A stretch of DNA of 64,000 bases from a virus (lineage: Duplodnaviria; Caudoviricetes). Below the pieces are notes generated by a model. The model was not told the DNA's origin, did not search any database, and was given only the letters and a program-made list of their open reading frames with translations. Shown here piece after piece: positions 2,562 to 58,269 of the stretch; positions within the stretch are counted from its first letter, which is position 1, and the number at the start of each line of letters is the position of its first letter. Location: the IMG/VR virus record IMGVR_UViG_3300034170_000057; one strand, 5' to 3'. The translations under genes and the position numbers were made by a program.

Positions 2562-2741
2562 ATGAGCCTGAACATTCTAGAGGTCGTGCAGTACACGTGT
2601 ATCGCGATTCTGGCTGTGGGCGTTCCTGTGGAGCTTTGGCGCCGCTACAAAGGCCCGAGCCCATATGAACAGGCGGTGCAGGAACTGGAACAGAAGCTGA
2701 AAGCAAAACCGGAACCGGAAGGCGAAAGCAAAAGTAGTTGA
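2562..2741 (+). CDS. small membrane protein with coiled tail
   Basis: AGGAGG RBS, ATG 2562, TM segment YTCIAILAVGVPVELW. Confidence 0.75.
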   Translation: MSLNILEVVQYTCIAILAVGVPVELWRRYKGPSPYEQAVQELEQKLKAKPEPEGESKSS

Positions 2742-2824
2742 CACCGGAACACGGTTTTGCGATTCTTTGGTGGCGGGCAAACTGTGCCTGCTATTTAGAC
2801 ACTCACGCAATTAGGGAAGTTAAG
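2738..2824 (+). promoter_or_regulatory. sigma70-like promoter plus conserved leader (copy 1)
   Basis: TTGACA(2738)-N17-GATTCT with TG extension; hairpin 2773-2791; CACTCAC 2800; GGAAGTT 2815. Confidence 0.7.
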
Positions 2825-3172
2825 ATGAGCCGGATGCAATTCACACCTATCGAAAGCTGGGCCGTTCCAAAGTTCGCTGGCACGCTTTCGTTCTTCGAAA
2901 CCATCGCCGTGTCGGAATTGGAAAACAAGGAAATCCGTCTCGACGCAGAAACACAACGCGCCCTTATCGGTTTCCCGGTTTTCGGCAAGCAAGCGTTTCG
3001 TGTGAATAGCGACGGCGGGATCACCGTTCGCAAATCGGTTGCGTTCGGGCAGGATTCAGAAGAATGCACGTACACGCCCCGCGAATTGGATTATGCGCGC
3101 CTGAATAATCTTAAACTGGTTCCACTTACAACTGGCCCCGGTATTTTTGCCGGTCTGCCAAAGGAGGACTAA
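2825..3172 (+). CDS. hypothetical protein
   Basis: Start moved to ATG 2825, after the leader RBS. Confidence 0.8.
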   Translation: MSRMQFTPIESWAVPKFAGTLSFFETIAVSELENKEIRLDAETQRALIGFPVFGKQAFRVNSDGGITVRKSVAFGQDSEECTYTPRELDYARLNNLKLVPLTTGPGIFAGLPKED

Positions 3173-3453
3173 TGTACGATCTAGCGGTGTTGGCTGCCTA
3201 TAGCGTTTTGGTCGTGGTAGCTTTCTACGTCGTGCTGGGAATTATCTTCGCGGCGTTTATGACCTACTACGTCACACAAACGCATGTGGTGGATGCTAAA
3301 AGCGCCATCATCTATACGCGCATTAAGGAAATGCCGTGGCGCTGGAAAATCATCGTCAGCGTGGGCGTGTGGCTTTATCTGATATTCCTGTGGCTGCCTT
3401 TAATCCTCGATTGGAAAGTGCCGCCGATTCCACCACTTGATGGGAGCAAATGA
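3172..3453 (+). CDS. membrane protein (2 TM)
   Basis: GGAGGA RBS; two long hydrophobic segments. Confidence 0.75.
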   Translation: MYDLAVLAAYSVLVVVAFYVVLGIIFAAFMTYYVTQTHVVDAKSAIIYTRIKEMPWRWKIIVSVGVWLYLIFLWLPLILDWKVPPIPPLDGSK

Positions 3454-3454
3454 C

Positions 3455-3856
3455 ATGCCTGCATTCCCGCAAAAATTGATCCTGTCGAGTTACCAACGCG
3501 ACGTGATTATGCACCGCCTAGAGCATTTGTCGGGCCTGCATACTTTCGACGTGGCGGAACTGTTTGAAGACCTCGACCGAAAACAGCAGCTGGATTCTGT
3601 GCGCGTGGTTGACGCCATCGAACATCTGCACACGTTTTTCAATTCGCATAAAGGCCCGTTGGTTTCTGTGCAACTTGAAAACGAGGAACAGGCCGAAGTT
3701 CTGGCCGAGTGCTTTGAAGGCTCGACTTACTTCGCCACGCATATAAAGGGAGACGGTGTTTATCGCCATGCCGCAAAATCGGCTGCTGAACTTCTGGCAA
3801 CGGTTTTAGATCGTGACGTGATGGCCCACATTGATCCTATCCCGCTGCACGGATAA
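3455..3856 (+). CDS. hypothetical protein
   Basis: GGGAG RBS before ATG 3455; track ORF 3437..3856. Confidence 0.75.
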   Translation: MPAFPQKLILSSYQRDVIMHRLEHLSGLHTFDVAELFEDLDRKQQLDSVRVVDAIEHLHTFFNSHKGPLVSVQLENEEQAEVLAECFEGSTYFATHIKGDGVYRHAAKSAAELLATVLDRDVMAHIDPIPLHG

Positions 3857-3932
3857 ACCCTTATGCGCATCTAGAATGGTGCGCATGCAGGTTGTACCGA
3901 AACCCCGAAACCTCACGTAAGGAGATTTACCG

Positions 3933-4205
3933 ATGGCACGCAAAACAGAAGCGGCCAATCTTGAAATCGCATCCCCCGAAAATCTGAACCCTGCACTTTC
4001 CCATTTCATCGTCGTGGATTACGGGGATTGGGGTTTCGGTTCCACGGTTCGGGAAGCGCTGGAAAAGATTCCGGGCGGAAACCGTTCCCGGCTGCAAAAG
4101 CATATGCAGGTATGGCACGTAACCCCGGAAACACGGCTCGGCGCGGATGGTCGGTTTTTTGGTCACGGGCAAAACTACCCGGTCCTAAACGAAAGCCACC
4201 GCTGA
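3933..4205 (+). CDS. hypothetical protein
   Basis: AAGGAG RBS preceded by cctcac; 90 aa. Confidence 0.75.
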   Translation: MARKTEAANLEIASPENLNPALSHFIVVDYGDWGFGSTVREALEKIPGGNRSRLQKHMQVWHVTPETRLGADGRFFGHGQNYPVLNESHR

Positions 4206-4211
4206 AACATG

Positions 4212-4303
4212 TTGACACCCCAGCGCCTGTAATGGCATTCTGAAATCCAATCGGCAACAACGCCGACGCAGTATCACACTCACACTTTATAGGAAGTTAA
4301 AAC
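4212..4303 (+). promoter_or_regulatory. sigma70-like promoter plus conserved leader (copy 2)
   Basis: TTGACA(4212)-N18-CATTCT with TG extension; hairpin tcggc/gccga 4251-4266; CACTCAC 4277; GGAAGTT 4292. Confidence 0.7.
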
Positions 4304-5836
4304 ATGACCACTACTACCCACACTCAAGCTGCTCTGTTGGTTGCTGCCGTTACCGCCCTGAACAAACAAATTTCCGTTTCCAAAAAAGGCGGCGTGGAAG
4401 TTCCAAGTATCGGCGCCGAAGTTGTACCGGGTATCAAACTGCGCGACCTGAAAAACTGGCTGAAGGACTTCACCGCCAAACAAGCCGACGCTTCGAAACC
4501 TGCCCCTGTTGCAAAAGCGGCCCCTGCTGTAAAAACCCCGGCTGCTGCAAAAACTGCCCCGGTCGCTGTAGAACTGAAATCGAGCGAAATTCGTGAAGCG
4601 GGCGTGGTTCTGCTGGGCCGTGCAAAAGAAACCGTGAAGCGCATCACCAAAGTGGGCGAAGAGCGTTTCGTGATTACCGAAAACGGTCTGCGTATCTCGG
4701 TTGCGCATCTGGAACGCAACAACCGTGGCAATATCCGCGTGATCGAATCCGAGGTCGCCGCGTATCTGGCCGAAAAAGCACCTGCTGCAAAAACACCTGC
4801 TGCTGCTGCTGCAAAACCTGCTGCAAAAACTGCCGAGCAAATCGCCAAGGCAGGCACCCGTAAGGCTTCCACTGTTGAACAGGAAGAGTTGCCAGAAGAA
4901 GCACCAGCCGCTACCGGTGGCCGCGTGTACCCGATTCGCGCTCTGACCCTCAAACCGGGCGCCCTGCTGGTAAGCGCTGAATACGACCGCAACACAAGCA
5001 CCCTGTATGCCACTCTCAAAGACGGCGCAGTATGGGCATATGAAGGCGTGAAACTGAGTGAAGTTCGTGCGCTCGAAAACGCCTCGATCCCGAGCAAACA
5101 TTTCTCGGCTCACGTTGCGAACAGCAAGAAAGGCCACATGGTCAAAAACCACAAGCCTGTGCCTGCCGCTGCTGAAAAAGCCCCGGTGAAAACCGCCGCT
5201 GCAAAACCTGCTGCAAAAACTACTGCCGCTAAACCAGCGTCGGCACCTGCTCCACAAGTGGCTGAAATCAGCACCACTGCACTGCGCGCAAATGGCTTCT
5301 TGGATGGTCGCAAGCACGAAACCGTTGCCAGCATTAACCGCGTCAAAGAAACCGGCCAGCGTATCGTGGTGACTGCAAGCGGTAAGCGTATTCCGCTGGA
5401 TTCGATCATTCTGGTAAAAGGCAAGTTCCGCGTTTCCGACCTTGCTTTGATCAGCGGCGCAGTTAATCCGGCCAAAGGCAAAACCGCTGCATCTGCCCCG
5501 GCACCGGCTCCAAAGGGTACTGAAAACACCCGCAAAGAGTTGAACGGCAAGGCTGCAAAACTGAACTTTGCTGCTGCCGAAAAAGCCCCGGTGAAAACCC
5601 CGGCCAAAGTGGTTTCGGAAAAGCCAAGCCGCACACAAGTTAAAGAGGCGTGCGTGCGTGTGATCAAGGGCAACAAGGAAAAACTGGTTAGCGTGATTCG
5701 TATCGTTAACCGTGACGATGTACTGGTGGCCGTGACTGAAAACAAAGGCGTGCTGCCGTATAACCTGATTATGTCGTTTGACGGTCAACCGACCTACACC
5801 GGCAAAATCACCGCCGAAGAATTCCGCGCTCTGTAA
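4304..5836 (+). CDS. KTSC-domain protein with K/A/P-rich histone-H1/AlgP-like linkers and three internal repeats
   Basis: LVSAEYDRNTSTLYATLKDGAVWAYEGV...LENASIPSKHF matches the KTSC pattern (~4960-5125); AAKPAAK linkers; strongly biased codons. Confidence 0.75.
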   Translation: MTTTTHTQAALLVAAVTALNKQISVSKKGGVEVPSIGAEVVPGIKLRDLKNWLKDFTAKQADASKPAPVAKAAPAVKTPAAAKTAPVAVELKSSEIREAGVVLLGRAKETVKRITKVGEERFVITENGLRISVAHLERNNRGNIRVIESEVAAYLAEKAPAAKTPAAAAAKPAAKTAEQIAKAGTRKASTVEQEELPEEAPAATGGRVYPIRALTLKPGALLVSAEYDRNTSTLYATLKDGAVWAYEGVKLSEVRALENASIPSKHFSAHVANSKKGHMVKNHKPVPAAAEKAPVKTAAAKPAAKTTAAKPASAPAPQVAEISTTALRANGFLDGRKHETVASINRVKETGQRIVVTASGKRIPLDSIILVKGKFRVSDLALISGAVNPAKGKTAASAPAPAPKGTENTRKELNGKAAKLNFAAAEKAPVKTPAKVVSEKPSRTQVKEACVRVIKGNKEKLVSVIRIVNRDDVLVAVTENKGVLPYNLIMSFDGQPTYTGKITAEEFRAL

Positions 5837-5857
5837 CTAGGGCGCTTCCTAGAAACA

Positions 5858-5891
5858 CCCCCGGCGCGTAAATGCAAAGGGGGTTATTTTT
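5858..5891 (+). terminator. terminator-like hairpin
   Basis: ccccc...ggggg followed by ttattttt, just after the KTSC gene. Confidence 0.5.
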
Positions 5892-5933
5892 CGCCTTCGT
5901 TTTTCCATCACAAATGCTAAGGAGGGTATTAGC

Positions 5934-6563
5934 ATGGAATATCTACTGTTCACGGTTGGATTGCTTGGTATCGCGCTATGCCTTGCGGCGCTGTGCCGGT
6001 TAACATTTGGCACGCGGGATGCGGGTAAGCTGGAAATCACCACCACCGAAATTAAACCAGACCAGATTAACGCCTCGGACTATAAAGAGCCGGGTAGTTT
6101 CTGGAGTGGTGCAAAACCTGTTGCTCCAATGCGCGATATTCCGTTCACACGTGAAGAGCGCGAACAGGCACGGGCCAAGGCCAACGCCGAGGCCAACGAA
6201 TCGCAAAACGTGCCCAATCCGGAAACTGTAAATTTGGAGAAGCCTAAACCGAAATTCGATTACCCGAACTTCGAAGGCTTTCCTTTTGACGGGGATACAT
6301 ACGACGAATTCAATTTGTCTATGATGACGCACGGCTTTGTCATTCGCTTTATTATGGCTAGCCACGAAGTGCAGGTAATCTATACGCCGCCTAAATCGCG
6401 GAACCCTATGGAGGCCCTGCGTCGTTTTTATTCTCCACCGAAAGCTATTTTCCCGCTGAACCTGCTACACGATGAAGGCCGTATGCGCACCGCGTTGTGG
6501 GCCATGCGTAAATTGAAATCCGATGAACGCCCACCAGAACTGGATGCGTTCGCGTACTTGTGA
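5934..6563 (+). CDS. N-terminally anchored membrane protein
   Basis: AAGGAGGG RBS; TM segment YLLFTVGLLGIALCLAAL. Confidence 0.8.
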   Translation: MEYLLFTVGLLGIALCLAALCRLTFGTRDAGKLEITTTEIKPDQINASDYKEPGSFWSGAKPVAPMRDIPFTREEREQARAKANAEANESQNVPNPETVNLEKPKPKFDYPNFEGFPFDGDTYDEFNLSMMTHGFVIRFIMASHEVQVIYTPPKSRNPMEALRRFYSPPKAIFPLNLLHDEGRMRTALWAMRKLKSDERPPELDAFAYL

Positions 6564-6571
6564 GGCCCCGC

Positions 6572-7069
6572 ATGATTTCCGAAAACGCAAAAGGCATTTG
6601 GCTGACAACCCAACCGGGCAAGCCTTACCCTGTGCGCGTGAATATCAGTCGTCGCGAAGTTGAATATGACCAGCGACGTACTGATCACGACTGCAATGAA
6701 GAGTTCGACCTTCACATAACTTTGAAGGACGATAAAAATAATCGGTCGTTTGCCACCGTGGTTATTTCCGGTGGTGGCCTTATGGCCGCGTTGGGGAATC
6801 GCGCAGAAATCCGGGCCAGTCTAATTTTCGAAGACAGCGCCGAATTACTCGGCCTGTTGAAAGAAACCAAAGAGGTCTGGATTAAGGCGCAACCCAAACT
6901 CAATTACAACGACGAACCCAAACTGAAAAAGGCGTGGACGCACGAAGGCTGGATGTACTCCGGTGGCTATAATGATCACCGTCGCAGTGAGAAACGCGCA
7001 GATGGCGAATACTACCGGTGCGAACTTGTGCGCTACGTCAAAGCCGAATCCGAGGATGAACAGGAATGA
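6572..7069 (+). CDS. hypothetical protein
   Basis: GAGG RBS before ATG 6572 (track start 6560). Confidence 0.75.
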   Translation: MISENAKGIWLTTQPGKPYPVRVNISRREVEYDQRRTDHDCNEEFDLHITLKDDKNNRSFATVVISGGGLMAALGNRAEIRASLIFEDSAELLGLLKETKEVWIKAQPKLNYNDEPKLKKAWTHEGWMYSGGYNDHRRSEKRADGEYYRCELVRYVKAESEDEQE

Positions 7070-7587
7070 AAACCACTGCATGGAACGAAGCGCACGAATT
7101 AAATTTCCAGTCGCTGCAAGACCTGTTCAAGACTACCCGCGAGACGCTTGAATTTATGAAAGCGGCCAAAGAGCGTGAAATCTCGCCGGAAGAATTGTCG
7201 CGCCGTATCGGCGTTGAGAAAATCCGCCAAGACAAAATCATGGCGCGGCTGTGTGACTACGTTAAACGCAACGGCGGGCGCTACACGGTCGGCAAGTTGG
7301 AAAACGGTTCCATGGGCCACACCACTTATAATTGGACGCTGATTTTGCATCTGGTCGGCGGGCACAAATTGGAATTCCAGTTTGCGCGCTGTTATGAGCC
7401 GGAAGTTTTCGACGTGCCACTTTCGCACCAGTGGTATTTCCGCCCAAAAGGCCGTCGCGCATATTTCATTATGCAAGACCAAGGCTATAACGATTGTGAA
7501 TCGGTTCCTGAATTGACCCGCTACGTTAAGCAGGCCCTGAAATGGGCGTCTGACGAAATGGGCACCAAAATCGAAATTAAGAAATAA
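7066..7587 (+). CDS. hypothetical protein
   Basis: 173 aa, ATGA overlap. Confidence 0.8.
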   Translation: MKTTAWNEAHELNFQSLQDLFKTTRETLEFMKAAKEREISPEELSRRIGVEKIRQDKIMARLCDYVKRNGGRYTVGKLENGSMGHTTYNWTLILHLVGGHKLEFQFARCYEPEVFDVPLSHQWYFRPKGRRAYFIMQDQGYNDCESVPELTRYVKQALKWASDEMGTKIEIKK

Positions 7588-7596
7588 GGACATACC

Positions 7597-7977
7597 ATGC
7601 TTACGCTGATGTTAAAATTGTGTTTGGCAGGGCAGCCGTGCAAAGAAGTCCGGATCGCGGATTTCTACTCGGCGCAGGCTTCTTACATGTGCAGCCTCAA
7701 CCGTGGCGGAATGGCCGAGCAATCCAAAAAGGAAGGGCGCACCGGCACATTCGAATGCAAACCGGGTTTAGGGCCTAGCACGCTCAAATCCTCGGCTGTG
7801 TTGAATTTCAAAGTCTGCACCGCCGACAAGACATGCGAGACTTTCCCCCTTGCGGATTTCTACGGCAAGGAAATGGCGGTCCCGATGTGTACCAAGAACG
7901 TGGAATATATGCAGCCCGGTTTTATACAGGCTGCAAAAGAAACAGGGGCCACTGTAGAACTCAACTGCCAATCGTAA
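7597..7977 (+). CDS. Cys-rich protein with internal duplication (ADFY motif twice)
   Basis: LCLAGQPCKEVRIADFY...MC versus VCTADKTCETFPLADFY...MC. Confidence 0.8.
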   Translation: MLTLMLKLCLAGQPCKEVRIADFYSAQASYMCSLNRGGMAEQSKKEGRTGTFECKPGLGPSTLKSSAVLNFKVCTADKTCETFPLADFYGKEMAVPMCTKNVEYMQPGFIQAAKETGATVELNCQS

Positions 7978-7987
7978 GGGGGCGCAG

Positions 7988-8293
7988 ATGAATCCCGAGT
8001 TATGCGTGATGCTTGCGGTTGCCGTTGGCGCCGCTGTGATGCTGATTTCGATTCTGTGTCTTGTGTGCCTACTTACATCGGTGCGTAGAAAGTTATGGCA
8101 CACCGAGCTAAACAATCGTGCGTGGCAAAATGAAAACCAGATACTGCGCCGCCAGATAGAAGAGGATCGGAACGCGGATCGCGCCCGCCGTGGTGATCAC
8201 GGGAAGGTTTACGAGGGCAGCTATAGAGAGTTGCGCAAGTGCAGGAAGACCGGGCGCTGGTCCACCGTCCGGGAAGTGGAAGTGAATCCGTAA
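7988..8293 (+). CDS. membrane-anchored coiled-coil protein
   Basis: Long N-terminal TM, then charged helix. Confidence 0.75.
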   Translation: MNPELCVMLAVAVGAAVMLISILCLVCLLTSVRRKLWHTELNNRAWQNENQILRRQIEEDRNADRARRGDHGKVYEGSYRELRKCRKTGRWSTVREVEVNP

Positions 8294-8300
8294 CCAACAC

Positions 8301-8340
8301 CAAAGGCTCCCCAGTTCACGCTGGCGGGGCCTTTGTCGTT
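8301..8340 (+). terminator. terminator-like hairpin
   Basis: caaaggc...gcctttg arms followed by tcgtttct. Confidence 0.45.
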
Positions 8341-8414
8341 TCTGGCGTGCGTTGGCCGCTCTCTATACGCGGGCGCGGGCCTGTACGCTTTCTAGGGCCT
8401 GCAATAGAAAGCGC

Positions 8415-8507
8415 TTGACGGATAGAGGGGGCTTTGATACCTTTGGCCTCAATCGGGCTTCTGCTGCCCGCAGAAAAGCCCCTCACGGAATAAAGGAAGT
8501 TTGAATC
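8415..8507 (+). promoter_or_regulatory. sigma70-like promoter plus conserved leader (copy 3)
   Basis: TTGACG(8415)-N17-TACCTT with TG extension; hairpin cgggc/gcccg 8454-8470; CCCTCAC 8480; GGAAGTT 8495. Confidence 0.7.
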
Positions 8508-8648
8508 ATGGCCTACGCAACGACCGCCAAACGCAAAACGGAAACCAAGACCGCCACGTGGAAATGGGATTCGCAGATTCGCATGGAACAGGAAGCCCGT
8601 GAAAAGCAAGTTAGTGACGCCGCTCGCCGCTTTCGCAAATCCATCTAA
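8508..8648 (+). CDS. 46-aa basic peptide (not in ORF track)
   Basis: Read by hand: MAYATTAKRKTETKTATWKWDSQIRMEQEAREKQVSDAARRFRKSI, directly after the conserved leader. Confidence 0.7.
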   Translation: MAYATTAKRKTETKTATWKWDSQIRMEQEAREKQVSDAARRFRKSI

Positions 8649-8673
8649 CCCCAACCCATTAAGGAACACCAAA

Positions 8674-8904
8674 ATGAAACGCGTCTACGAAATCCGCCTC
8701 ACCGCAACATTCACCAACACCGAAACCGGCACTACCATGAGCAAGGGCATTAACTACCCGCTGGTAGAAGAAACCGCCGACGCTGCAATTGCCAAGGCAC
8801 AAACGGCGGAACGTATCGGCATGATTGTCGCCACGTACATTCCCCAGCAGCACCAGCGCAAAGTCACCTGCACCGTCTCCAACATCACCGCCAACGCTAA
8901 ATAA
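8674..8904 (+). CDS. hypothetical protein
   Basis: AAGGA RBS, ATG 8674, highly biased codons. Confidence 0.8.
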   Translation: MKRVYEIRLTATFTNTETGTTMSKGINYPLVEETADAAIAKAQTAERIGMIVATYIPQQHQRKVTCTVSNITANAK

Positions 8905-8916
8905 GGAGTATCGAAA

Positions 8917-9060
8917 ATGGAATACGCAACCACCGCAATGGGCCACGTAAAAGAAATCGCCGTCCTGATCGCGTTCGGCTCCGCACTCGGCGCATTCGCC
9001 TACTTCGAACTACGCAAGAAACGCAACGCGCCTAAACCGCGTGGCGCTACCAAAATCTAA
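8917..9060 (+). CDS. 47-aa single-TM peptide (not in ORF track)
   Basis: AAGGAG RBS; MEYATTAMGHVKEIAVLIAFGSALGAFAYFELRKKRNAPKPRGATKI. Confidence 0.75.
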   Translation: MEYATTAMGHVKEIAVLIAFGSALGAFAYFELRKKRNAPKPRGATKI

Positions 9061-9111
9061 AACGCTGTACCCGCCACACAAACCACTCTCCTGACTGTAA
9101 AGGATTCTAAA

Positions 9112-9522
9112 ATGAAAACCGTAGCTGCTTTCCCTGCTTTCGACGTTATCGACCTTGAACAAGATGTAATCTGCATCGCCCGCGAACAGATGGACAATTT
9201 TACCGGCCTGAAATTCTGCGTTGCGAAAGAAACTCTGCGTCATGGCACCCTGTACCCGGAAGTTCGCCCGTACTGTGCTGCGTACTACGCGCAGGACTAC
9301 AACGAATGCCCGGTAGCTGCCGAAACGCGTTGCGACGACCTGAAGCATGAAAAATACTGGGTCGGCAATTGCGGCGCCATGATCACCAGCGAAAAGCGTA
9401 ACAAGGGCGTCCGGATCTTTTTGAAACCGGGCCAGAAAATCGAAATGAACGGCGTGCTTCTTGAGTTCTACCAGAAAGCGCCGCGTTCGGAACACTACGG
9501 CTTGAAACCCGTAGTCGCGTAA
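9112..9522 (+). CDS. hypothetical protein
   Basis: AAGGA RBS, 136 aa. Confidence 0.8.
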   Translation: MKTVAAFPAFDVIDLEQDVICIAREQMDNFTGLKFCVAKETLRHGTLYPEVRPYCAAYYAQDYNECPVAAETRCDDLKHEKYWVGNCGAMITSEKRNKGVRIFLKPGQKIEMNGVLLEFYQKAPRSEHYGLKPVVA

Positions 9523-9603
9523 ACAGTTAGTTGATTCTGCGCATCCGTGTGGTGCGCAGGCGTGACGAAACTGAAACAGCACTAATTAGCTACGAGGTAG
9601 ATC

Positions 9604-9843
9604 ATGTTCGACAATTTGAGATTTTCAATCGGCACGGTCGGTGACACAACTTACACCGGTATCGTGATCGAAGACGACGGCTTCATTGTGGAATACGATT
9701 TTGTGTTTCAGGATGAACCTGAAGCCCGTGATTTTTTCGGGGAAGTTTACTGGGCGCGTGTTACCGCCTACGCAAAACCAACGTTTGCAGTTCCGAACCC
9801 GGAATATGCAGAGGTCACACACTCCATAGGGGCGCGGTCATGA
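9604..9843 (+). CDS. acidic hypothetical protein
   Basis: GAGGT RBS, 79 aa. Confidence 0.75.
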   Translation: MFDNLRFSIGTVGDTTYTGIVIEDDGFIVEYDFVFQDEPEARDFFGEVYWARVTAYAKPTFAVPNPEYAEVTHSIGARS

Positions 9844-10343
9844 CAGCTAATCGTAAGAAAACCGAAACCCTGCATATGCGCCTGAATTTCCGCCATAAGC
9901 TGTATCTGGTCGCACTCGCAAACGTGCAAGAAACCACGGCGTCTAGTTACGTGGAAACGCTGCTGGATAATTTGGCAGCTAAGCAGACCGTGGACGGTTG
10001 CCTCGGCACGCTGACGATTAAAGACGCCGTGGATATTGCGATAATCAAAGGCTCGCCAGCCATGACCGCACTGCGCACGTTTTATATCGCGCCTCAAATT
10101 CTAAGCCCGTCTGATATGGCAATGCAGCGTGCCCTAGAATGCAACATGGATTATTTCGGCGGCACTGACGAAATTCTAACAGCGGATGAAATTGGAACGG
10201 GCCAGCGCCCACCGTCTGTAAACGCCGCGTTGCTTGCGGACCATCTTGAGGTTTTGCAGGAATACGCAAACTTCGCAAAATCGAACCCGCATATGGTTAT
10301 GTCCTACGTCGATTATCGCCGTTGCACTGGCCGCTCTGAATAA
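9840..10343 (+). CDS. putative ribbon-helix-helix domain protein
   Basis: N-terminal TETLHMRLNFRHKLYLVALANVQETTASSYVETLL fits the RHH/CopG strand-helix-helix pattern. Confidence 0.55.
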   Translation: MTANRKKTETLHMRLNFRHKLYLVALANVQETTASSYVETLLDNLAAKQTVDGCLGTLTIKDAVDIAIIKGSPAMTALRTFYIAPQILSPSDMAMQRALECNMDYFGGTDEILTADEIGTGQRPPSVNAALLADHLEVLQEYANFAKSNPHMVMSYVDYRRCTGRSE

Positions 10344-10353
10344 GGATCACGTG

Positions 10354-10740
10354 ATGCAAACTTTTATGAGTTGGTTTCCGCACTGGTATATCGGCGCCTG
10401 CTTTATGTTGGGTTTCGTGATTCTGCCGATCATGGTTTTTCTGGCGTCTCGCCCGTTGCTCATTGGTTTGAGTTACGGCCTTTGGGAAACCGTGTGCTGG
10501 TACAAGTGCGGCCTGCCGATGTGGAAAGTTTTCCGGCGCCTTTTTATTGCGGTGCTGTGGGATACTTTCACATGGCGCCTTATCAACAGCTACACGGAAA
10601 ACGTGAGCCACAACGAAGGGAGCTGGAGCGGCATTTTCCGCTGGAGTTTCCGAAAAACATTTACCCGCGCTGCTGGCAAGAAATTTATTGCACAGCAAGC
10701 GGCGGCAAAACGTAAAGCAGCTATGGACGCAGACGTATGA
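10354..10740 (+). CDS. membrane protein
   Basis: AAGGA RBS; TM segment WYIGACFMLGFVILPIMVFLA. Confidence 0.75.
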   Translation: MQTFMSWFPHWYIGACFMLGFVILPIMVFLASRPLLIGLSYGLWETVCWYKCGLPMWKVFRRLFIAVLWDTFTWRLINSYTENVSHNEGSWSGIFRWSFRKTFTRAAGKKFIAQQAAAKRKAAMDADV

Positions 10741-10976
10741 AACCTCGTGAACCTTTGTGGTCCCTGAAAGATTTGGCAGGCCACGCAAAAGTTACGGAAA
10801 GCGCACTAACACAGCGCTCTAAGAAACATCCCATTCCGCCCGCGTTTAATCAGGAAGACGGGCGTATTGATTCACGGTTCGGCTCTGTGGCAATCGCAGG
10901 CCGTTATCGCCGGTCGGCAATTCTGGAGTGGTTCAACACGCAGGATGCGGCAACCCCGTTTAAACGGAAGGCATAA
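10737..10976 (+). CDS. AlpA/excisionase-like HTH protein
   Basis: LWSLKDLAGHAKVTESALTQR...IPP...RYRRSAILEWF. Confidence 0.6.
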   Translation: MKPREPLWSLKDLAGHAKVTESALTQRSKKHPIPPAFNQEDGRIDSRFGSVAIAGRYRRSAILEWFNTQDAATPFKRKA

Positions 10977-10979
10977 GCC

Positions 10980-11174
10980 ATGTACAAGACTGATTACAAA
11001 ACCGATCCTGATTTTGTTGCGGATCAGGATATTCACGGTGCTATTCAGTGGGCGAGATATTCGCAGCGGCATTTTATACAGGCCATGCGTCATGGTTTTC
11101 TCATGGCGGCGTATGAATACAAAGTAGATCGCGACACGTTTATGCAGCGTGCGCGAAACTGTAAATCTAAATAA
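10980..11174 (+). CDS. hypothetical protein
   Basis: GGAAGG RBS, 64 aa. Confidence 0.65.
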   Translation: MYKTDYKTDPDFVADQDIHGAIQWARYSQRHFIQAMRHGFLMAAYEYKVDRDTFMQRARNCKSK

Positions 11175-11186
11175 GGGAATTAAATC

Positions 11187-11663
11187 ATGACCACTCTCAA
11201 CACGATCAAGAAAGGCCCGTTCAAAGGCATGGTGCTGATTGTAAACGACCACATTAAATCGAAGGCTGTCCTGTGGCCGCACGAAGCCGCCATGGAAATT
11301 GAAAAGGGCGCCCGCGTAGTCGAGGAAAAAGAATGGGATGCTTTCAAAACGCAATCCATGATCGACCGGGATACAAAGGCCGTCGCGCCTATTGAAGCGG
11401 AGCCCGTCGCGCCTATTGTTGAGGGGCCAGATTTTTCGATTCTGGATTTGCCCGGTACGCGCCGCGTTGTGAAAGTGCAAGTCTCTGAAAAATTCTACGC
11501 GGAGACACGGGAATTCGAAAGCGGCTGGGGTAACAAGCGCGATGACCTGCTGGAATTCGACACGGCGGAAGAACGGGATGCGTGGTGCAAAGCCTACAAC
11601 CTGAAACACAACAGTGAAGCCGCCACGCCAGCGTGGTACATAAAAGCCTTCGTGTTGAATTAA
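11187..11663 (+). CDS. hypothetical protein with short VAPI repeat
   Basis: AAGGGA RBS; ccgtcgcgcctattg at 11380 and 11404. Confidence 0.8.
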   Translation: MTTLNTIKKGPFKGMVLIVNDHIKSKAVLWPHEAAMEIEKGARVVEEKEWDAFKTQSMIDRDTKAVAPIEAEPVAPIVEGPDFSILDLPGTRRVVKVQVSEKFYAETREFESGWGNKRDDLLEFDTAEERDAWCKAYNLKHNSEAATPAWYIKAFVLN

Positions 11664-11734
11664 TCACTGCTGCACATTCTGAGGTCTAGAGTGTGCAACG
11701 GGATAAACTCCAATCACAAACGAGGAAGTGAAAG

Positions 11735-12418
11735 ATGACCGAGATTATTTATCTGATTTTAGAAGTGCTGGGGGTTGCATCCCTGCTTTATGTTTTCGTC
11801 AGATATGTGGTGCCATCGCTGCTGTGGTTATCGGCTGCCGTTTTCGGTTTCCGATGCCACCTGACGATTGCGAAACTGCACGGAATTGATACGGCGCCTA
11901 TTTGGGCAAGCGCGCCCCGGCATATTTTTCGTGCGTGGATGGAACATATGGATTACCACGTAACGCTGCGTGATCCTGATTTGTCGTATCACTACCGCAC
12001 CGGCACCCACAACAGCGTCACGAAGAATGAACCGTGGCTAGATCAATTGGCAACCGCACTTCGCCTCGGTCGCACGCTTATGCGCCTCGACGTTTTCAAG
12101 GATGGCGCGGACCTGCAAGTAAACGAAACGCTGAATTGTTCGATTGCGACGTTGCCTCCCGGCCTTTTGGGTAGGGATGGTTTTTACCGCGTGCTGTTTC
12201 TGTATCCGGAATCGCCGGTTATGGAATCGGTGATCGGCCTCGACCTCGTGCGTATGTTCAAAACAATTAAATACTACATGCCCGGACTGGACTATGTGGT
12301 GGTGGTAAACCCACGCCAGTTGATCGACGGTAAACACAACCTGATCGAATATCTGTCTGCCACTAACGGCATATGGATCGGCTGTGACCATCTGGCTTTT
12401 GAAATACCCAAGGACTGA
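11735..12418 (+). CDS. membrane-anchored hypothetical protein
   Basis: GAGGAAG RBS; N-terminal TM segments. Confidence 0.75.
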   Translation: MTEIIYLILEVLGVASLLYVFVRYVVPSLLWLSAAVFGFRCHLTIAKLHGIDTAPIWASAPRHIFRAWMEHMDYHVTLRDPDLSYHYRTGTHNSVTKNEPWLDQLATALRLGRTLMRLDVFKDGADLQVNETLNCSIATLPPGLLGRDGFYRVLFLYPESPVMESVIGLDLVRMFKTIKYYMPGLDYVVVVNPRQLIDGKHNLIEYLSATNGIWIGCDHLAFEIPKD

Positions 12419-12435
12419 CTGCCGTTGAGGCGAAG

Positions 12436-12567
12436 GCGCTCGCTGTTGCTGGTGCGTCCCACGACATAGGCAACGTTCTAACGGGCCTCGGTGAACGTGA
12501 GGGGCTGTTTCTGCAATGGGCACAGGGTCGCAGAGGCTTGAAGTTGAAACGTTGCTGTAGCGAGTGC
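12436..12567 (+). ncRNA. candidate branched structured RNA (unassigned)
   Basis: Nested helices 12436-12446/12557-12567, 12470-12477/12548-12555, 12507-12514/12530-12537 and 12486-12489/12499-12502 in a gene-free gap that ends in a terminator. Confidence 0.45.
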
Positions 12568-12570
12568 AAG

Positions 12571-12598
12571 CGGCCCCTGTAGGGGCTGTTTTCGTTTG
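12571..12598 (+). terminator. intrinsic terminator
   Basis: cggcccc-tgta-ggggctg followed by ttttcgttt. Confidence 0.7.
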
Positions 12599-12688
12599 TT
12601 GACCGTTCGTCAGTCGATAGGTACAATGAAAACCAGTCGGGCAAGTTGCGCCCACGATTCACCCACTCACGCAATAAGGGAAGTTAGA
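12599..12688 (+). promoter_or_regulatory. sigma70-like promoter plus conserved leader (copy 4)
   Basis: TTGACC(12599)-N17-TACAAT(12622); hairpin gggc/gccc 12639-12653; CACTCAC 12664; GGAAGTT 12679. Confidence 0.8.
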
Positions 12689-13153
12689 ATGAACAGCCTA
12701 AATGCTTTGCCATCCCTGCAATTCAATATCGCCACCTGCGCAGAATCCACCGAACTGCGCGTGCAGTTGCAGGACGGTTTAGTTACCGAAACCGAATTCC
12801 TCAAAAAGCTGATCGACCTTGCAACGCGTCACCGCGTGTTGCCGGTTGCAGTGCTGGCACAATTTGCAGACGGTGCTTTTCCTTACGGCGTTGCTGTAGG
12901 GAGTTACGAAAGTGACGGCAGTGAAAATTGCAAATACTGCGACGACTTCGCCAGCCTACGGGATGCGATTGTGGCGTGGGGGCATTATTCGCCGGGTGCG
13001 GCATGGGCGCGGTTAGAACATCGCGTAGACAATTTTGTGTACGGCCTTGACCCTTACAAAATTCGTAAGGCCAAAAAGGTTGTAGACGACAACGGCGAAG
13101 CGCGCACGCTGTACATGATGTGCGATGCCAACGGCAACTTTCTGGAGAATTGA
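12689..13153 (+). CDS. hypothetical protein
   Basis: Start moved to ATG 12689, after the leader. Confidence 0.8.
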   Translation: MNSLNALPSLQFNIATCAESTELRVQLQDGLVTETEFLKKLIDLATRHRVLPVAVLAQFADGAFPYGVAVGSYESDGSENCKYCDDFASLRDAIVAWGHYSPGAAWARLEHRVDNFVYGLDPYKIRKAKKVVDDNGEARTLYMMCDANGNFLEN

Positions 13154-13155
13154 GA

Positions 13156-13353
13156 ATGTCCGACAAGGCAATGGAAGACGCAATCGCGGAAGCAGAGCGC
13201 AACGGTAGCAGCCGCGTGAAAATTCCCCAAGACGGGAAACCGCGCTGCCGGAACTGCGGATACGTTACCAGCGAGCGGGGGCCATTCAATGAGCCTCTGC
13301 ACTCTGCCTGCTGGGCGGAAGAGGACGAAGCCATAGACGCCCTTTCAACGTAA
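13156..13353 (+). CDS. small putative Zn-finger protein
   Basis: GGAGA RBS; CRNC...HSAC. Confidence 0.65.
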   Translation: MSDKAMEDAIAEAERNGSSRVKIPQDGKPRCRNCGYVTSERGPFNEPLHSACWAEEDEAIDALST

Positions 13354-13374
13354 CCGGCACCACGCCAAGACAAG

Positions 13375-13430
13375 CCCGCCCTGTGCGGGTTTTGTCCGTA
13401 GTAAAACAAATCGACCTTTATCAAGGAATT
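13375..13430 (+). repeat. intergenic cassette copy 2 (hairpin plus RBS)
   Basis: cccgccctgtgcggg-ttttgtccgtagt...cctttatcaaggaatt; matches 343-389. Confidence 0.75.
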
Positions 13431-13435
13431 GCATC

Positions 13436-14674: not shown

Positions 14675-14677
14675 AAA

Positions 14678-14875
14678 ATGGTTAAGGTAGTTTCTGCACC
14701 GCCCCTGCTTTTTCGTTGCACCAGTTGCGGTGCGACGTGTGAGGGTGAAGAAAAAGATTTCAAAGAGCAGCACACAATGCCGCCGACGTGGAAAGTCAAA
14801 TGCGGTTATTGCAACCTGACAAATACCGTCAGCCCTTCGGCGCTGATTTCAAGACTGGTCGGCACACGCTTTTAA
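14678..14875 (+). CDS. Zn-ribbon protein
   Basis: CTSC and CGYC pairs in 65 aa. Confidence 0.75.
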   Translation: MVKVVSAPPLLFRCTSCGATCEGEEKDFKEQHTMPPTWKVKCGYCNLTNTVSPSALISRLVGTRF

Positions 14876-14890
14876 TCGAGGAAGTAAAAG

Positions 14891-15466: not shown

Positions 15467-15550
15467 TTAACCTGACCCACTTTAATGCACATTCGTTGAG
15501 TGTGCATTGCAGATAAATCAGCATTCTCCTAACCGTAAAGGATACCCGAA

Positions 15551-16875: not shown

Positions 16876-16880
16876 TCAAA

Positions 16881-39740: not shown

Positions 39741-39828
39741 TTGACCAGTAGGCCGACGAATGGTAGTGTGGCGGTTGGCCGAGTTGTGGCCGCCACATAA
39801 GCACTCACGCATTAGAGGAAGTTTAGGT
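39741..39828 (+). promoter_or_regulatory. sigma70-like promoter plus conserved leader (copy 5)
   Basis: TTGACC(39741)-N17-TAGTGT with TG extension; hairpin gtggcgg/ccgccac 39768-39796; CACTCAC 39802; GGAAGTT 39817. Confidence 0.7.
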
Positions 39829-40773
39829 ATGGGACGCAAGGTAATGGATCTGTCGGAAGCTGTAGCCGGTTCGCTGTTGGAACAGGTCGGCCCTCGGAAA
39901 TTCGCAATCGCCGTTATGAATGCAACTGCGCACGGCGGCGTATTGCACGATTGCCACACCGTCGATTTGGATTTCGACCAAGACGACGTAAAGCTGAATG
40001 CGTGGCATGAACAGCTGGAACGTTTGCTGGAAGTCGGCAAGTGGTTGGAACACGTGGACGGTAAAACGCCTGAATTCCTGCGCCACAAAGTCCGACCTGA
40101 TGATGAGTTTAGCGATAGCGATCAGCGCGACGTGGCAGATTTGAGCGTTGACGATCAAACCGTGCAGCAAATCGTGACCCTCGAAAACATCGTGTTCGAA
40201 TTGAGCGGCCACAAAATCCGCATCCTACGCAAAAACAGCGCAAAGACTTCTGTCATTCTGCGCGGTGGGCTGGTGTGGTTTGTTGACGCCGTGCGTGATC
40301 AACTGTCTTCGGACAGCGAGCTTTACGACGTATTCAAATTCGTCGCCCGCTGCATTGCGGAAGACCGTGTGAAAGTGACCCACGAAAACTGGGAATTCAC
40401 CTGCACCGCAGATGGCCGGTTAAACAAGCAGCGCAAACATAAAGGCGACGATGGAAGCGACGGTTTTGAAATCAGTATCGACGATTTGGGCGAACTGATC
40501 GAAGACCGGCTGGGTGTGCATTTCGATATCGTCGTAGGGGAAGCTAACGAAGACTTAATCGTAGAAATGGTTTGCCCGCGTTCGAAATTTATCGAAACCC
40601 TCGACAATTACGTTGAGCGCGTGCGTAGCGTTGGGTATGTGGCCGACTCACTGTTCGACCTGTACGGCCTGATCGTTAAACTGCCGTGTGTGCGCAATCG
40701 TCACGTCGGCGGCCCCGGTTCGGCTCCGATTTCGTCGCGTGTGGCGCGTCGTCGTTTGGAAGCGCTGAGCTAA
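39829..40773 (+). CDS. acidic hypothetical protein (putative early gene)
   Basis: Start moved to ATG 39829, after the leader. Confidence 0.8.
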   Translation: MGRKVMDLSEAVAGSLLEQVGPRKFAIAVMNATAHGGVLHDCHTVDLDFDQDDVKLNAWHEQLERLLEVGKWLEHVDGKTPEFLRHKVRPDDEFSDSDQRDVADLSVDDQTVQQIVTLENIVFELSGHKIRILRKNSAKTSVILRGGLVWFVDAVRDQLSSDSELYDVFKFVARCIAEDRVKVTHENWEFTCTADGRLNKQRKHKGDDGSDGFEISIDDLGELIEDRLGVHFDIVVGEANEDLIVEMVCPRSKFIETLDNYVERVRSVGYVADSLFDLYGLIVKLPCVRNRHVGGPGSAPISSRVARRRLEALS

Positions 40774-40783: not shown

Positions 40784-40808
40784 GGGCCATTCGTTTTCTG
40801 AGTGGCCC
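40784..40808 (+). other. intergenic hairpin with CATTC/GAGTG core
   Basis: gggccattc-gttttct-gagtggccc. Confidence 0.6.
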
Positions 40809-53586: not shown

Positions 53587-53602
53587 ATTAAAGGTAGGTA
53601 CA

Positions 53603-55702: not shown

Positions 55703-55710
55703 GGATTAAT

Positions 55711-56274: not shown

Positions 56275-56657
56275 CATGGCACACCGTAGTAACCATTTTA
56301 TCTATGAGCGGCGTTTTGTTTATTACCGCTCTTTTACGCGGCGCACAAAGTAAAGCGGCTTCCGGTGGTCATAAACGTATGGCGTTCTGTGGCGGTTCTG
56401 CAATGAGTGCCTGTGAACTAATCGTGATGATTACCATGGCAGGCGTTGCCATGACTTTGCCGAATCCGTACTACGCGCTTTTCAGTAGTTTCGGCGCAGG
56501 TTGCGGTTGGGTTGCGGGCATGGTGTTGCATGATCGCGTGATGCGTAAACGTCGTGAGAAACTAAAGCTCGCCAAGAAAGGCCGACGTGTAAAACAAATC
56601 GACCGTGTTGCCCGTGAGGCAATGGAAGAATTCCTGATCGAAAAGGGGTTGCTGTGA
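56271..56657 (+). CDS. small multi-TM protein (LxGxQ...LH family, paralog B)
   Basis: LFITALLRGAQSK...GAGCGWVAGMVLHDRVM. Confidence 0.75.
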   Translation: MTWHTVVTILSMSGVLFITALLRGAQSKAASGGHKRMAFCGGSAMSACELIVMITMAGVAMTLPNPYYALFSSFGAGCGWVAGMVLHDRVMRKRREKLKLAKKGRRVKQIDRVAREAMEEFLIEKGLL

Positions 56658-57391
56658 TTTTATTTCAACGCGCTATTCCGAAAATCAGTTTGACGTTTGA
56701 TATAGGCGCATGCATTACGCCGGACGCGCCAATTAATCACTGCATGATTTACTGCGCAACCAAGCCATACCAATACTCACATATTATTGTGAAAACGTTG
56801 GTCGAAGACTGGCTGCGTACTGCACGGCAACCCTATCCGCCCGACCGCCCGATCATAAATCTGAAATTTGAGTATGTAAGTACCATCCACCGCGACCGGC
56901 TTTTCCAGAACGGTTATTCCGTGCTGTGCCTTATTCCGGGCTTGCCTCCGATACTGCATTGGGGTTGTCCGGGTAACGTGAGCATGCACGACCTCATGGG
57001 TATGGCGACCGTTATCAAAACGTTTTTGTATTACTATGAAACCGATTTGAAACCCACCATCGCGAGGCGCCTACAGTGTACGTACCCTGTCGATTACCCG
57101 CAGGAAACCCGGTGCTGCCGCGCTATGGTTCATGAGTTGTTCCGGCAGGTTTCCAACGCAGCACGCGAACAGCGTATTGCGTATGGCCGTAGTGAATTAT
57201 ACGTGGCGCCAGAAAATACCTGCGAGGACGAATATTTCTACATGCTGTGGCACACTAGTAAGGCCTACCGCATCCGCGTCGATTTCGATAACTTCGACCT
57301 GAAGTTTTTGGTGCCGCAGAAATTGTTCGACCTGTTCGATTCGTGTTTCGGCGCCGAACTCACTTACCATATGGTTCCAGAAGGAGAATAA
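56654..57391 (+). CDS. hypothetical protein
   Basis: GTG start, 245 aa. Confidence 0.7.
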   Translation: MILFQRAIPKISLTFDIGACITPDAPINHCMIYCATKPYQYSHIIVKTLVEDWLRTARQPYPPDRPIINLKFEYVSTIHRDRLFQNGYSVLCLIPGLPPILHWGCPGNVSMHDLMGMATVIKTFLYYYETDLKPTIARRLQCTYPVDYPQETRCCRAMVHELFRQVSNAAREQRIAYGRSELYVAPENTCEDEYFYMLWHTSKAYRIRVDFDNFDLKFLVPQKLFDLFDSCFGAELTYHMVPEGE

Positions 57392-57395
57392 AAAG

Positions 57396-57638
57396 ATGCG
57401 CACTAAATTCCGTAACATGGATCAACTGAAAGGCGCTGCGAATCTGTACGGCTTTCGTGAACCCCACGCGGGCGAGTCCGAGGAATCGTACCGCTCTGAC
57501 CTTTCCGATCACGTCTGCAAAACCGACGTAGTGGCCGGGATGGAAATTCACAACGGCAAAGGCTGGCAAGGTTTCGACGAACTGGAAAACCTTGTGATGC
57601 TTGCAGCAGCGGCCCGCCAGAATTCCGCACGTTATTAA
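57396..57638 (+). CDS. hypothetical protein
   Basis: AAGGAG RBS, 80 aa. Confidence 0.75.
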   Translation: MRTKFRNMDQLKGAANLYGFREPHAGESEESYRSDLSDHVCKTDVVAGMEIHNGKGWQGFDELENLVMLAAAARQNSARY

Positions 57639-57663
57639 TTCACTGCCATTAAGGGAGCAACAC

Positions 57664-58134
57664 ATGATCGTAAACAAATCCGAAAACCTGAATTTCAGCC
57701 GTACCGCTACCGGCGTCGTACTGATCGACCACAAAAACGAAAAGGTGCTGCTGGTCACGTCTCTGAAATTCCCCGGCTTGTGGGTTTTGCCGAAAGGTGG
57801 TTTGGAAGACGGTTTGACCGCCGAGGAAAACGCGCAGAAAGAAACCCGCGAGGAAGCCGGGATCGCCGTTCAACTGCACGGGAAGATTTACGACGAAGTT
57901 TTGCACTACCCGGCAACCGGCGACCGCGAGGAAAAGATTCAGCGCGAGATTTATTTCCGTGGCTCGTTTCTGTCTTACGTCGATTGGGAAGAGTACCAGT
58001 TGCGCAAACGTGAGTGGTTCACCATTGACGCTGGTCTGTCCTCCCTGATGAACTCCGAACAGTATGAAGTGGTGAAGCTGGCGAAGGTCGCGGCATTGCT
58101 GGAACACGCGCAGTCGCAAGGCTATAGCGCTTAA
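57664..58134 (+). CDS. Nudix hydrolase
   Basis: WVLPKGGLEDGLTAEENAQKETREEAGI = Nudix box (variant with K15); AAGGGAG RBS. Confidence 0.9.
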   Translation: MIVNKSENLNFSRTATGVVLIDHKNEKVLLVTSLKFPGLWVLPKGGLEDGLTAEENAQKETREEAGIAVQLHGKIYDEVLHYPATGDREEKIQREIYFRGSFLSYVDWEEYQLRKREWFTIDAGLSSLMNSEQYEVVKLAKVAALLEHAQSQGYSA

Positions 58135-58182
58135 CGTCGTGTAGCAGCTATAGGGGCTAAACCCTTGATCCATGGGGAGAAC

Positions 58183-58269
58183 TTGACACCGGGTGCTTAG
58201 CGATGCCAGTATGGCGGCTGGGCATTCGCTGCCCGCTCATTCAACCCTCACGGATTAAGGGAAGTTTAG
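58183..58269 (+). promoter_or_regulatory. sigma70-like promoter plus conserved leader (copy 6)
   Basis: TTGACA(58183)-N18-CAGTAT with TG extension; hairpin gggc/gccc 58220-58234; CCCTCAC 58245; GGAAGTT 58259. Confidence 0.65.

Follow-up and report, generated by a model that had tools for sequence, protein, structure and literature searches.

A recurrent promoter, hairpin and box cassette ahead of putative early genes in a jumbo Pseudomonas phage of the Lu11/HRDY3 type

The DNA analyzed here is a stretch of 64,000 nucleotides (nt) from the Caudoviricetes virus record IMGVR_UViG_3300034170_000057, referred to below as the window, in which every one of the ~130 predicted genes lies on the + strand. 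A 667-amino acid (aa) DUF8224 protein encoded in the window shares 52–56% identity with proteins from the Pseudomonas phages pf16, Lu11, and HRDY3, and we assign the source, from its sequence, to a giant (jumbo) Pseudomonas phage of the Lu11/HRDY3 type. The subject of this analysis is a cassette of ~100 bases that joins a promoter of the host type to a GC hairpin and a conserved box, and that occurs in exactly six copies in the window, all on the + strand, at 2738, 4212, 8415, 12599, 39741, and 58183 (modules A to F). A first-pass annotation, made from the letters alone, had described these six sites with a TTGAC(A/C/G) element, a spacer of 17 or 18 nt, a TG extension in five of six, and a GC hairpin, and all of these are present where it placed them.

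The elements of a module follow one another in a set order: TTGAC(A/C/G), a spacer of 17 or 18 nt, TG plus one base and a weak -10 hexamer, a G-rich discriminator, a GC hairpin with a stem of 5–7 bp and a loop of 5–7 nt, a linker of ~11 nt, the box, and an ATG. In all six copies, the box reads (A/C)C(A/C)CTCAC, exactly 8 A/T-rich nt, and GGAAGTT, with the ATG another 3–6 nt on; the spacing between CTCAC and GGAAGTT, which had been given only approximately, is therefore more exact than first claimed (8 nt in 6/6).

Module A (2738..2827) consists of -35 TTGACA at 2738–2743, TG at 2758–2759, -10 GATTCT at 2761–2766, hairpin GCGGGCA/TGCCTGC at 2773–2791, CTCAC at 2802–2806, the 8-nt spacer at 2807–2814, and GGAAGTT at 2815–2821, and leads into the ATG at 2825 of a 115-aa acidic protein that is conserved in Lu11. 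Module B (4212..4306) has TTGACA at 4212–4217, an 18-nt spacer, TG-G-CATTCT at 4233–4241, hairpin TCGGC/GCCGA at 4251–4266, CTCAC at 4279–4283, and GGAAGTT at 4292–4298. Its first gene (ATG at 4304; 4304–5836) encodes a 510-aa basic KTSC-domain protein with an isoelectric point (pI) of 10 and 16% Lys plus Arg, kept as far as Lu11, in which the KTSC match covers residues 223–273 only. In module C (8415..8510), TTGACG at 8415–8420 and TG-A-TACCTT at 8435–8443 precede hairpin CGGGC/GCCCG at 8454–8470, CTCAC at 8482–8486, and GGAAGTT at 8495–8501. The gene behind it (ATG at 8508; 8508–8648) specifies a 46-aa peptide of pI 10.4 (MAYATTAKRK...DAARRFRKSI), a candidate nucleic-acid-binding peptide that is conserved in two complete metagenomic relatives, G001 and G002 (introduced below), and, at its N-terminus, in Lu11.

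Module D (12599..12691) carries TTGACC at 12599–12604 and -10 TACAAT at 12622–12627 with no TG, followed by a GGGC/GCCC hairpin at ~12638–12654, CTCAC at 12666–12670, GGAAGTT at 12679–12685, and the ATG at 12689 of a 154-aa product. Module E (39741..39831) has TTGACC at 39741–39746, TG-G-TAGTGT at 39761–39769, a hairpin at 39768–39796 with an outer GTGGCGG/CCGCCAC and an inner GGCC/GGCC stem, CTCAC at 39804–39808, GGAAGTT at 39817–39823, and an ATG at 39829 that opens a 314-aa reading frame. Module F (58183..58272), finally, comprises TTGACA at 58183–58188, an 18-nt spacer, TG-C-CAGTAT at 58204–58212, hairpin GGGCA/TGCCC at 58220–58234, CTCAC at 58247–58251, and GGAAGTT at 58260–58266, and precedes an 83-aa membrane protein (ATG at 58270). 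The genes that come first after the modules have orthologs in Lu11; they include those of the acidic 115-aa protein, the basic KTSC protein, the basic peptide of 46–50 aa, and the membrane protein. The three strongest hairpins resembling intrinsic terminators on the coding strand are found at 2512–2538, just upstream of module A, at 12568–12591, directly upstream of module D, and at 40784–40808, directly 3' of the first gene of module E. Because this last strong hairpin adjoins its end, the module E gene may be transcribed largely alone.

The recurrence of the cassette far exceeds what base composition would yield. Its fixed-spacing core, CTCAC-N8-GGAAGTT, occurs exactly six times in the window compared with ~0.01 expected, and no shuffled sequence reached the number of cores observed when up to two mismatches were allowed. 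A covariance model built from 34 copies retrieved these six modules from the window and no others at E ≤ 1, and a search of the whole window against Rfam at the gathering threshold gave no match. The first-pass annotation had also listed a partial copy at 3911. There, CCTCAC abuts an AAGGAG Shine-Dalgarno (SD) sequence, and the 8-nt spacer, GGAAGTT, and TTGAC are all missing; since, among ~130 genes, two to three should by chance have a CTCAC no more than 20 nt from the start, this site lies within chance and we do not count it as a copy. As a separate observation, a second recurrent ribosome-binding site (RBS) context, GGAGATTTACCG-ATG, occurs at 3913–3935 and 33213–33234 on the + strand, ahead of the genes at 3933 and 33232, and a related context, TTGGAGATT-N-ATG, precedes eight genes of G001.

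The cassette recurs throughout a lineage of jumbo phages, and it was the box at the DNA level that led to them: a 5-kb megablast against a phage collection returned no match, and two first-gene products, used as protein queries against viral contigs, retrieved no relatives. When public contigs were searched with a 36-bit box consensus, multiple matches appeared in each of five jumbo-phage contigs of 307–314 kb, while the few matches in unrelated contigs came without a promoter and serve as an internal control. Two of the relatives are complete metagenomic genomes, G001 (314,224 bp, with terminal repeats) and G002 (307,943 bp), which contain 10 and 8 exact cores, respectively, with the full architecture; a reversed-pattern control gave 0 in both. 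The cultured phages Lu11, with 4 exact and ~7 one-mismatch copies, and HRDY3, with ~10 copies, likewise show the full architecture, so that each of these four relatives carries 8–11 cassettes ahead of orthologous genes. The relatives are nevertheless divergent, as only ~12 of the 64 kb of the window align to G001/G002 in blastn, with the alignment starting exactly at 2738, the first base of module A. The proposal that the sites form one promoter-plus-leader family is thus borne out by their retention before orthologous genes.

Searches of PaBG, Dickeya phage AD1, phage NCTB, and pf16 yielded background matches only, and the box consensus found one match, an unrelated one, in 596 Gb of prokaryote genomes. 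Because the relatives carry copies and these other genomes do not rise above background, the cassette is an element of the Lu11/HRDY3 clade that was not taken from a host. A degenerate relative of the cassette is found in G002 at 115126–115205 on the + strand (L094), where the TTGACA...TG-T-TACCTT promoter type is kept, the hairpin is absent, and CCACTCAC is followed by 3 nt, GGAAC, and an ATG. The stretch is also present in one RNA-labeled run, X1 (an assembled peat metatranscriptome), in contigs of 13–36 kb whose depth is flat across the modules in a DNA-like manner and shows neither start sites nor signs of expression; this library most likely contains phage DNA. In the same run (window 1–20000), one contig links position 13427 back to position 1 via 1467 other letters, which hints at a variant arrangement in the sample.

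The promoter part of the cassette conforms to the extended -10 class recognized by the host sigma70 factor. Among 37 non-redundant copies, the spacer measures 17 nt in 29 and 18 nt in 8, and TG is present in 31; the one window copy without it, at 12599, has GG in that position but also the best hexamer, TACAAT. Whereas TTGAC is invariant in the aligned copies, only -11A and -7T are conserved within the -10 hexamer, and the TG extension would compensate for this weak -10. All features of a sigma70 extended -10 promoter (a -35 element of the TTGACA type, 17 ± 1 nt, TG at -15/-14, and -11A/-7T) are therefore found in the cassette promoters, which look like good promoters for the host enzyme. Consistent with this, the depositors of the Lu11 record independently annotated sigma70-like early promoters at 9922–9948 and 11602–11632, directly upstream of two of its boxes.

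With regard to the polymerase itself, a search for a T7-like RNA polymerase (PF00940) in G001, G002, and Lu11 gave no match (T7 positive control, 1e-109), and a search for the beta subunit of a multisubunit RNA polymerase (PF00562) found no homolog (control positive in 14/14 genomes). Each of G001, G002, and Lu11 has one open reading frame (ORF) of the sigma70 family, ~340 aa long, and phage sigma factor genes have been described for this phage group (PMC7412058). Because each of these phages has a single sigma factor but lacks genes for an RNA polymerase, the cassette promoters are likely read by the sigma70 holoenzyme of the host.

A separate motif is annotated in the Lu11 record as a putative middle/late promoter. 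This motif, ACTGTAAAT, occurs seven times in the window (6225, 11158, 20479, 34249, 36505, 52123, and 53580), always on the + strand, compared with 0.35 occurrences expected. It probably marks a second promoter class, which is possibly read with the phage sigma factor. At 20479, the sole site viewed in context, the motif adjoins an RBS and has neither hairpin nor box. Generic sigma70-like matches, by comparison, are depleted: three 20-kb scans covering window 1–60000 found 12, 9, and 7 against 15.3, 16.9, and 18.1 in shuffles, a deficit that suggests avoidance of spurious host promoters. The generic scanner detects only one of the six modules because their -10 hexamers are weak. Given that generic sites lie below shuffled levels, that the covariance model finds no extra matches, and that site 20479 is bare, we regard the modules as the only strong host-type promoters of the window, and hairpin and box as accompanying that class only. 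As much as 27 kb can separate one module from the next, and these gaps contain no further strong promoter of the host type.

The hairpin always lies 3' of the -10, 0–5 nt past the predicted start, and has no T-run. The unpaired stretch predicted ahead of it has a median of 3 nt in the 37 non-redundant copies, as reckoned from the predicted start site. Leaders fold at ≤ -10 kcal/mol in 65% of modules compared with 11% of 36-nt background windows, and alignment gaps are confined to the region between the -10 and the hairpin: the -10-to-hairpin distance varies by up to 5 nt, while the gap between hairpin and box is mostly 9–13 nt. Register shifts in a MAFFT alignment kept RNAalifold from finding the hairpin, and individual folds and the covariance model were used instead.

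The first-pass annotation held that the hairpins keep their structure while changing their sequence, and this holds in part. Structure appears to be maintained, and several paralog groups have unrelated stems (TCGGC/GCCGA, GGCC/GGCC, GGCAC/GTGCC, CGGAC/GTCCG, and GAGATT/AATCTC). However, four of the six window hairpins and most copies in relatives are versions of a single sequence, GGGCA-N5/6-TGCC(C/T), so that the hairpins do not vary freely. For this common stem, read in a single register, 65% of cells pair compared with 32–49% in slid controls, and G.U outnumbers A.C by 41 to 24. Double changes number 22 compared with 15 ± 4 in shuffles, of which 24/500 reach the observed value.

The box is conserved beyond the rest of the leader. 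CTCAC and GGAAGTT are invariant across ~60 copies from Lu11 to HRDY3, while linker, loop, and flanks diverge, and box and spacer are mostly unpaired by prediction (P 0.6–0.76). In most copies, an ATG follows GGAAGTT at SD distance (3–6 nt), as in module D of the window, where GGGAAGTT serves the ATG at 12689. In the orthologs of this module in G001 (141844) and in contig L054, however, the gene starts ~37 nt further downstream with its own GAGGA SD, and the box remains intact in its usual place. The AGGGAAG of the box is paired there to a following CTTCCCT arm, with differing loops (L080:1796-1930, equal to G001 141.8 kb; L054:1033-1140 on the - strand), and a T-run (TTTTCT) that follows this hairpin in G001 is not kept in L054. 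The CTTCCCT arm could represent an attenuator or mask a pseudo-RBS.

A second orthologous group, group G, departs further from the usual arrangement. It has members in G001 (7.2–7.5 kb; L073:7213-7480 on the - strand), G002 (169.2–169.5 kb), three other contigs (L003, L026, and L027), HRDY3 (L162), and Lu11 (L108). The promoter-proximal box is preserved at 12/12 positions in all seven genomes, even though the ATG is 156–214 nt away. Within the intervening leader, a long stem is conserved, and a second hairpin-plus-box unit occurs at -32/-33 relative to the ATG; this unit has no promoter of its own and lies ~170 nt from any. In it, five of the seven genomes retain CTCAC and six retain AAGTT, but none retains the GG of the SD core: GCAAGTT, GAAAGTT, or GTAAGTT stands in place of GGAAGTT, and the SD is a separate GGAG. 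No conserved leader ORF was found in the 156–214 nt, which may form a regulatory leader or a small RNA.

Because the box is intact 37–214 nt ahead of the real start codon in two orthologous groups, it appears to be more than an RBS. The earlier idea of a ribosome recognition box tied to the RBS is accordingly challenged by G001 141844, L054, and group G, where the box stands away from the start. The rigid distances that separate the box from the hairpin and from the SD core, the variable distance between -10 and hairpin, the unpaired box, and these two atypical groups together favor a unit of RNA read by a partner over a plain RBS, a part of the promoter, or a duplex operator.

We therefore lean, with little more than even confidence, toward the following model. 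Each site would be a self-contained early cassette whose promoter-proximal RNA leader is read by a putative trans-acting partner, such that ~10 early units are handled together. Host sigma70 polymerase would start the early transcripts at the TTGAC(A)/TG-extended promoters, and each transcript would begin, within ~0–5 nt, with a GC hairpin of 5–7 bp that we infer to protect against 5'-end-dependent decay. The box, CUCAC plus an 8-nt A/U-rich spacer and GGAAGUU(U), would present itself mostly single-stranded 9–13 nt past the hairpin, its 3' half supplying an ordinary SD core that acts as the RBS where an ORF directly adjoins. Hairpin and box would together constitute a recognition element through which the partner marks early transcripts of the host polymerase and sets the stability, translation, or read-through of the early group jointly. 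The reason to propose such an element is that hairpin plus box is kept whole even with the start codon or the promoter far off.

As the box has no host counterpart, a phage-encoded or injected partner, or universal machinery, seems more likely than a specific host regulator. In a narrower version of the model, hairpin plus box would tag the early phage transcripts of the host polymerase as self, and the reader would be a phage factor, either injected or made first, that might act through processive antitermination or through selective translation and protection while host mRNA is shut down. In this particular form, we consider the idea doubtful.

Several points weigh against the partner model as a whole. 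That a leader RNA exists at all, where it starts, and when it is made are deduced from sequence. GGAA(G) is the ordinary SD flavor of this phage, and plain selection for an RBS may account for part of the box conservation. Covariation in the common stem is modest and the antisense strand folds as well as the sense strand; an RNA-level hairpin is likely from its position but not proven by sequence. Furthermore, there is no candidate for the partner: Pfam and PHROG scans of ten products of first genes and their neighbors gave no informative family other than KTSC. The argument for a partner rests on the two atypical orthologous groups and the invariance of CTCAC, and for most copies a strong promoter and a strong RBS would suffice.

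Among the alternatives, one that we judge unlikely is that the leader acts as a nut- or put-like site of processive antitermination, at which hairpin and linear box in the nascent RNA load a host or phage factor onto, or act directly on, the host RNA polymerase. Early transcription would then pass terminators or Rho sites across the long co-directional gene arrays, which accords with the distances of up to 27 kb between modules, with no other strong host-type promoter between them. The unit begins every sigma70-type transcription unit, is kept independently of the start codon, is specific to the phage lineage, and recalls boxB/boxA, in the order found in rrn, by its rigidly spaced hairpin and single-stranded box. 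The hairpin and TTTTCT right after the box at G001 141844 would also suit such a site, but the T-run is absent from L054, and the units contain terminator-like sites no more often than chance would give. Moreover, the box is unlike boxA (of the CGCTCTTA type), the loops vary freely, unlike that of boxB, and there is one hairpin where put has two. No N, Q, or other antiterminator homolog was identified, the scans of first-gene products having returned no N-like family, and the ACTGTAAAT promoter class can serve the distal genes. Antitermination also has no need of a box held 3–6 nt ahead of the ATG in most copies.

That same position counts in favor of a purely cis-acting leader for high expression, a reading to which we assign an equally low probability. 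The hairpin would stabilize the RNA, the A/U-rich spacer and SD would recruit 30S/S1 with no specific partner, and CTCAC would be unstructured C/A-rich filler kept by descent. Besides the short gap of 3–6 nt that most copies leave between GGAAGTT and the ATG, this reading is backed by the potential of AGGGAAGU for pairing to the 16S 3' end (7/8 positions, judged by eye), by GGAA(G) being the common SD of the phage, and by an A/U-rich spacer that is predicted to be unpaired. However, CTCAC is invariant together with GGAAGTT in ~60 copies over the distance from Lu11 to HRDY3, while linker, loop, and flanks diverge. The box is also intact where it is not the RBS of the gene: in the module D orthologs, a complementary arm that is conserved, although the loops differ, even sequesters GGGAAG, and in group G, the box is kept at 12/12 positions in seven genomes, 156–214 nt from the ATG.

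Less probable again is an element that works at the level of DNA, with the box as an operator at ~+27 to +47, bound by a DNA-binding protein of phage or host that blocks or modulates early transcription, or with the whole as a recombination cassette whose conservation would in part reflect exchange between copies. The model for the latter is the promoter-early stem-loop (PeSL) cassette of T4-type phages, which is similar in size and build and mediates shuffling there (PMC2839356, PMC4122927), with indels, shuffled ORFans between close relatives, and mini-circles as its marks. The modules are indeed islands of nucleotide identity, the alignment to G001/G002 beginning exactly at 2738. Sense and antisense strands fold equally well, and the distance from -35 to box is nearly constant (62–68 nt). 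The distance from the box to the -10, on the other hand, varies by up to 5 nt, or about half a helical turn, while that between box and hairpin is rigid. The box is asymmetric, with no dyad and no direct repeat, and, in group G, ~170 nt separate the second unit from the nearest promoter. Finally, -10 regions, loops, and spacers specific to each group are kept among orthologs, which argues for descent and block selection rather than homogenization.

The idea that the box is the promoter of a phage single-subunit, T7/T3-like RNA polymerase deserves practically no credence and is refuted for polymerases of the PF00940 and PF00562 families, neither of which was matched; the likeness to the T3 core is superficial (CTCAC, an A/T-rich stretch, and GGGA; CCCTCAC...GGGAAG), the CTCAC-to-GGG distance is 7–8 nt rather than 4, and the box always lies at a fixed distance from a sigma70 promoter and hairpin. 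Several other candidates were considered by eye and rejected. As a sigma54 -24/-12 promoter, the box has a GG-to-GC spacing one short; as an extracytoplasmic function (ECF)/AlgU -35 (GGAACTT), it has no -10 at the proper distance, and the start would fall inside the gene; an IHF site was likewise discarded. At the RNA level, the loops contain no GGA for CsrA/RsmA, there are two ARN triplets only, and these not in all groups, for Hfq/Crc A-rich motifs, and the hairpin stands 17 nt, not 11, from the candidate site of a His-type pause. Kissing between loop and box is possible in two groups only.

Most jumbo phages lack an RNA polymerase of their own, and the way in which they order the first minutes of infection is largely unmapped. 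In the lineage described here, every strong host-type promoter is followed by a 5' hairpin and an invariant 20-nt box that is kept even when it is not a ribosome site. This would define a compact, testable regulon of ~10 early units and a candidate for a new RNA-protein (or RNA-polymerase, or RNA-ribosome) recognition pair. Both Lu11, which grows on P. putida, and HRDY3 are in culture, which gives direct experimental access, and the cassette may also find use in Pseudomonas as a compact part for strong expression. Should only a strong RBS context lie behind the box, the finding would reduce to an annotation of early promoters.

The cassette is real and conserved within the lineage, and it is apparently undescribed so far: the searchable literature on Lu11, PaBG, and Pseudomonas phage transcriptomes contains no description of the leader, and no paper on HRDY3 was found. 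It nevertheless shares features with several known systems. Lambdoid nut sites and rrn antiterminators (boxA plus boxB) are likewise promoter-proximal, combine a short hairpin with a conserved single-stranded box at fixed spacing, and do not depend on the start codon. The present box, however, reads ACACTCAC rather than the CGCTCTTA of boxA and usually doubles as an RBS. In lambda, the boxB loop is bound by an N-type arginine-rich peptide. Whereas boxB has a conserved loop, the present hairpin is the reverse, with a conserved stem and loops that vary both between and within groups. The put RNA of HK022, also just past early promoters, consists of two adjacent stem-loops of ~70 nt in place of one hairpin and an unpaired box.

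Stem-loops at the 5' terminus of the ompA type reportedly stabilize mRNA in E. coli (Emory, Bouvet and Belasco, 1992). In this type, the stem-loop stands within ~4 nt of the true 5' end and prolongs the half-life of the mRNA. The GC hairpin of the modules, placed 0–5 nt from a predicted 5' end, would be similar, but such stabilizers need no adjacent conserved box. A further parallel is offered by the RegA operators and RegB cleavage sites on early mRNAs of T4 (reviewed in PMC3014915), where a short RBS motif on many early messages allows one phage factor to switch all of them off. RegA sites overlap the AUG and are loosely conserved, and RegB cuts GGAG, whereas the present motif is 20 nt long, invariant, upstream of the AUG, and contains GGAAG. 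A search for a RegA homolog (PF01818) gave no match, a weak negative given that the positive control was silent as well.

The closest described systems, judged by analogy of architecture, are the PeSL cassettes, known in the T4-type phages RB49/phi1, PST/T4, and nt-1/KVP40 (Arbiol et al. 2010, PMC2839356; Comeau et al. 2014, PMC4122927). Both are repeated intergenic units of ~100 bp in a large myovirus that combine a near-consensus sigma70 early promoter with a GC-rich stem-loop and carry at their 3' end the SD and ATG of the next gene, which is mostly of no known function; in both, the family is kept within its lineage. PeSL cassettes belong to another phage lineage, have no sequence homology to the present cassette, and lack an invariant leader box. 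Their stem-loop lies between, over, or beside the -35 and -10 and acts as a terminator or attenuator for upstream transcription, a role not seen in the present modules, two of which have separate terminators upstream. The hairpin described here is instead 3' of the -10, has no T-run, and would form the transcribed 5' end of the early leader.

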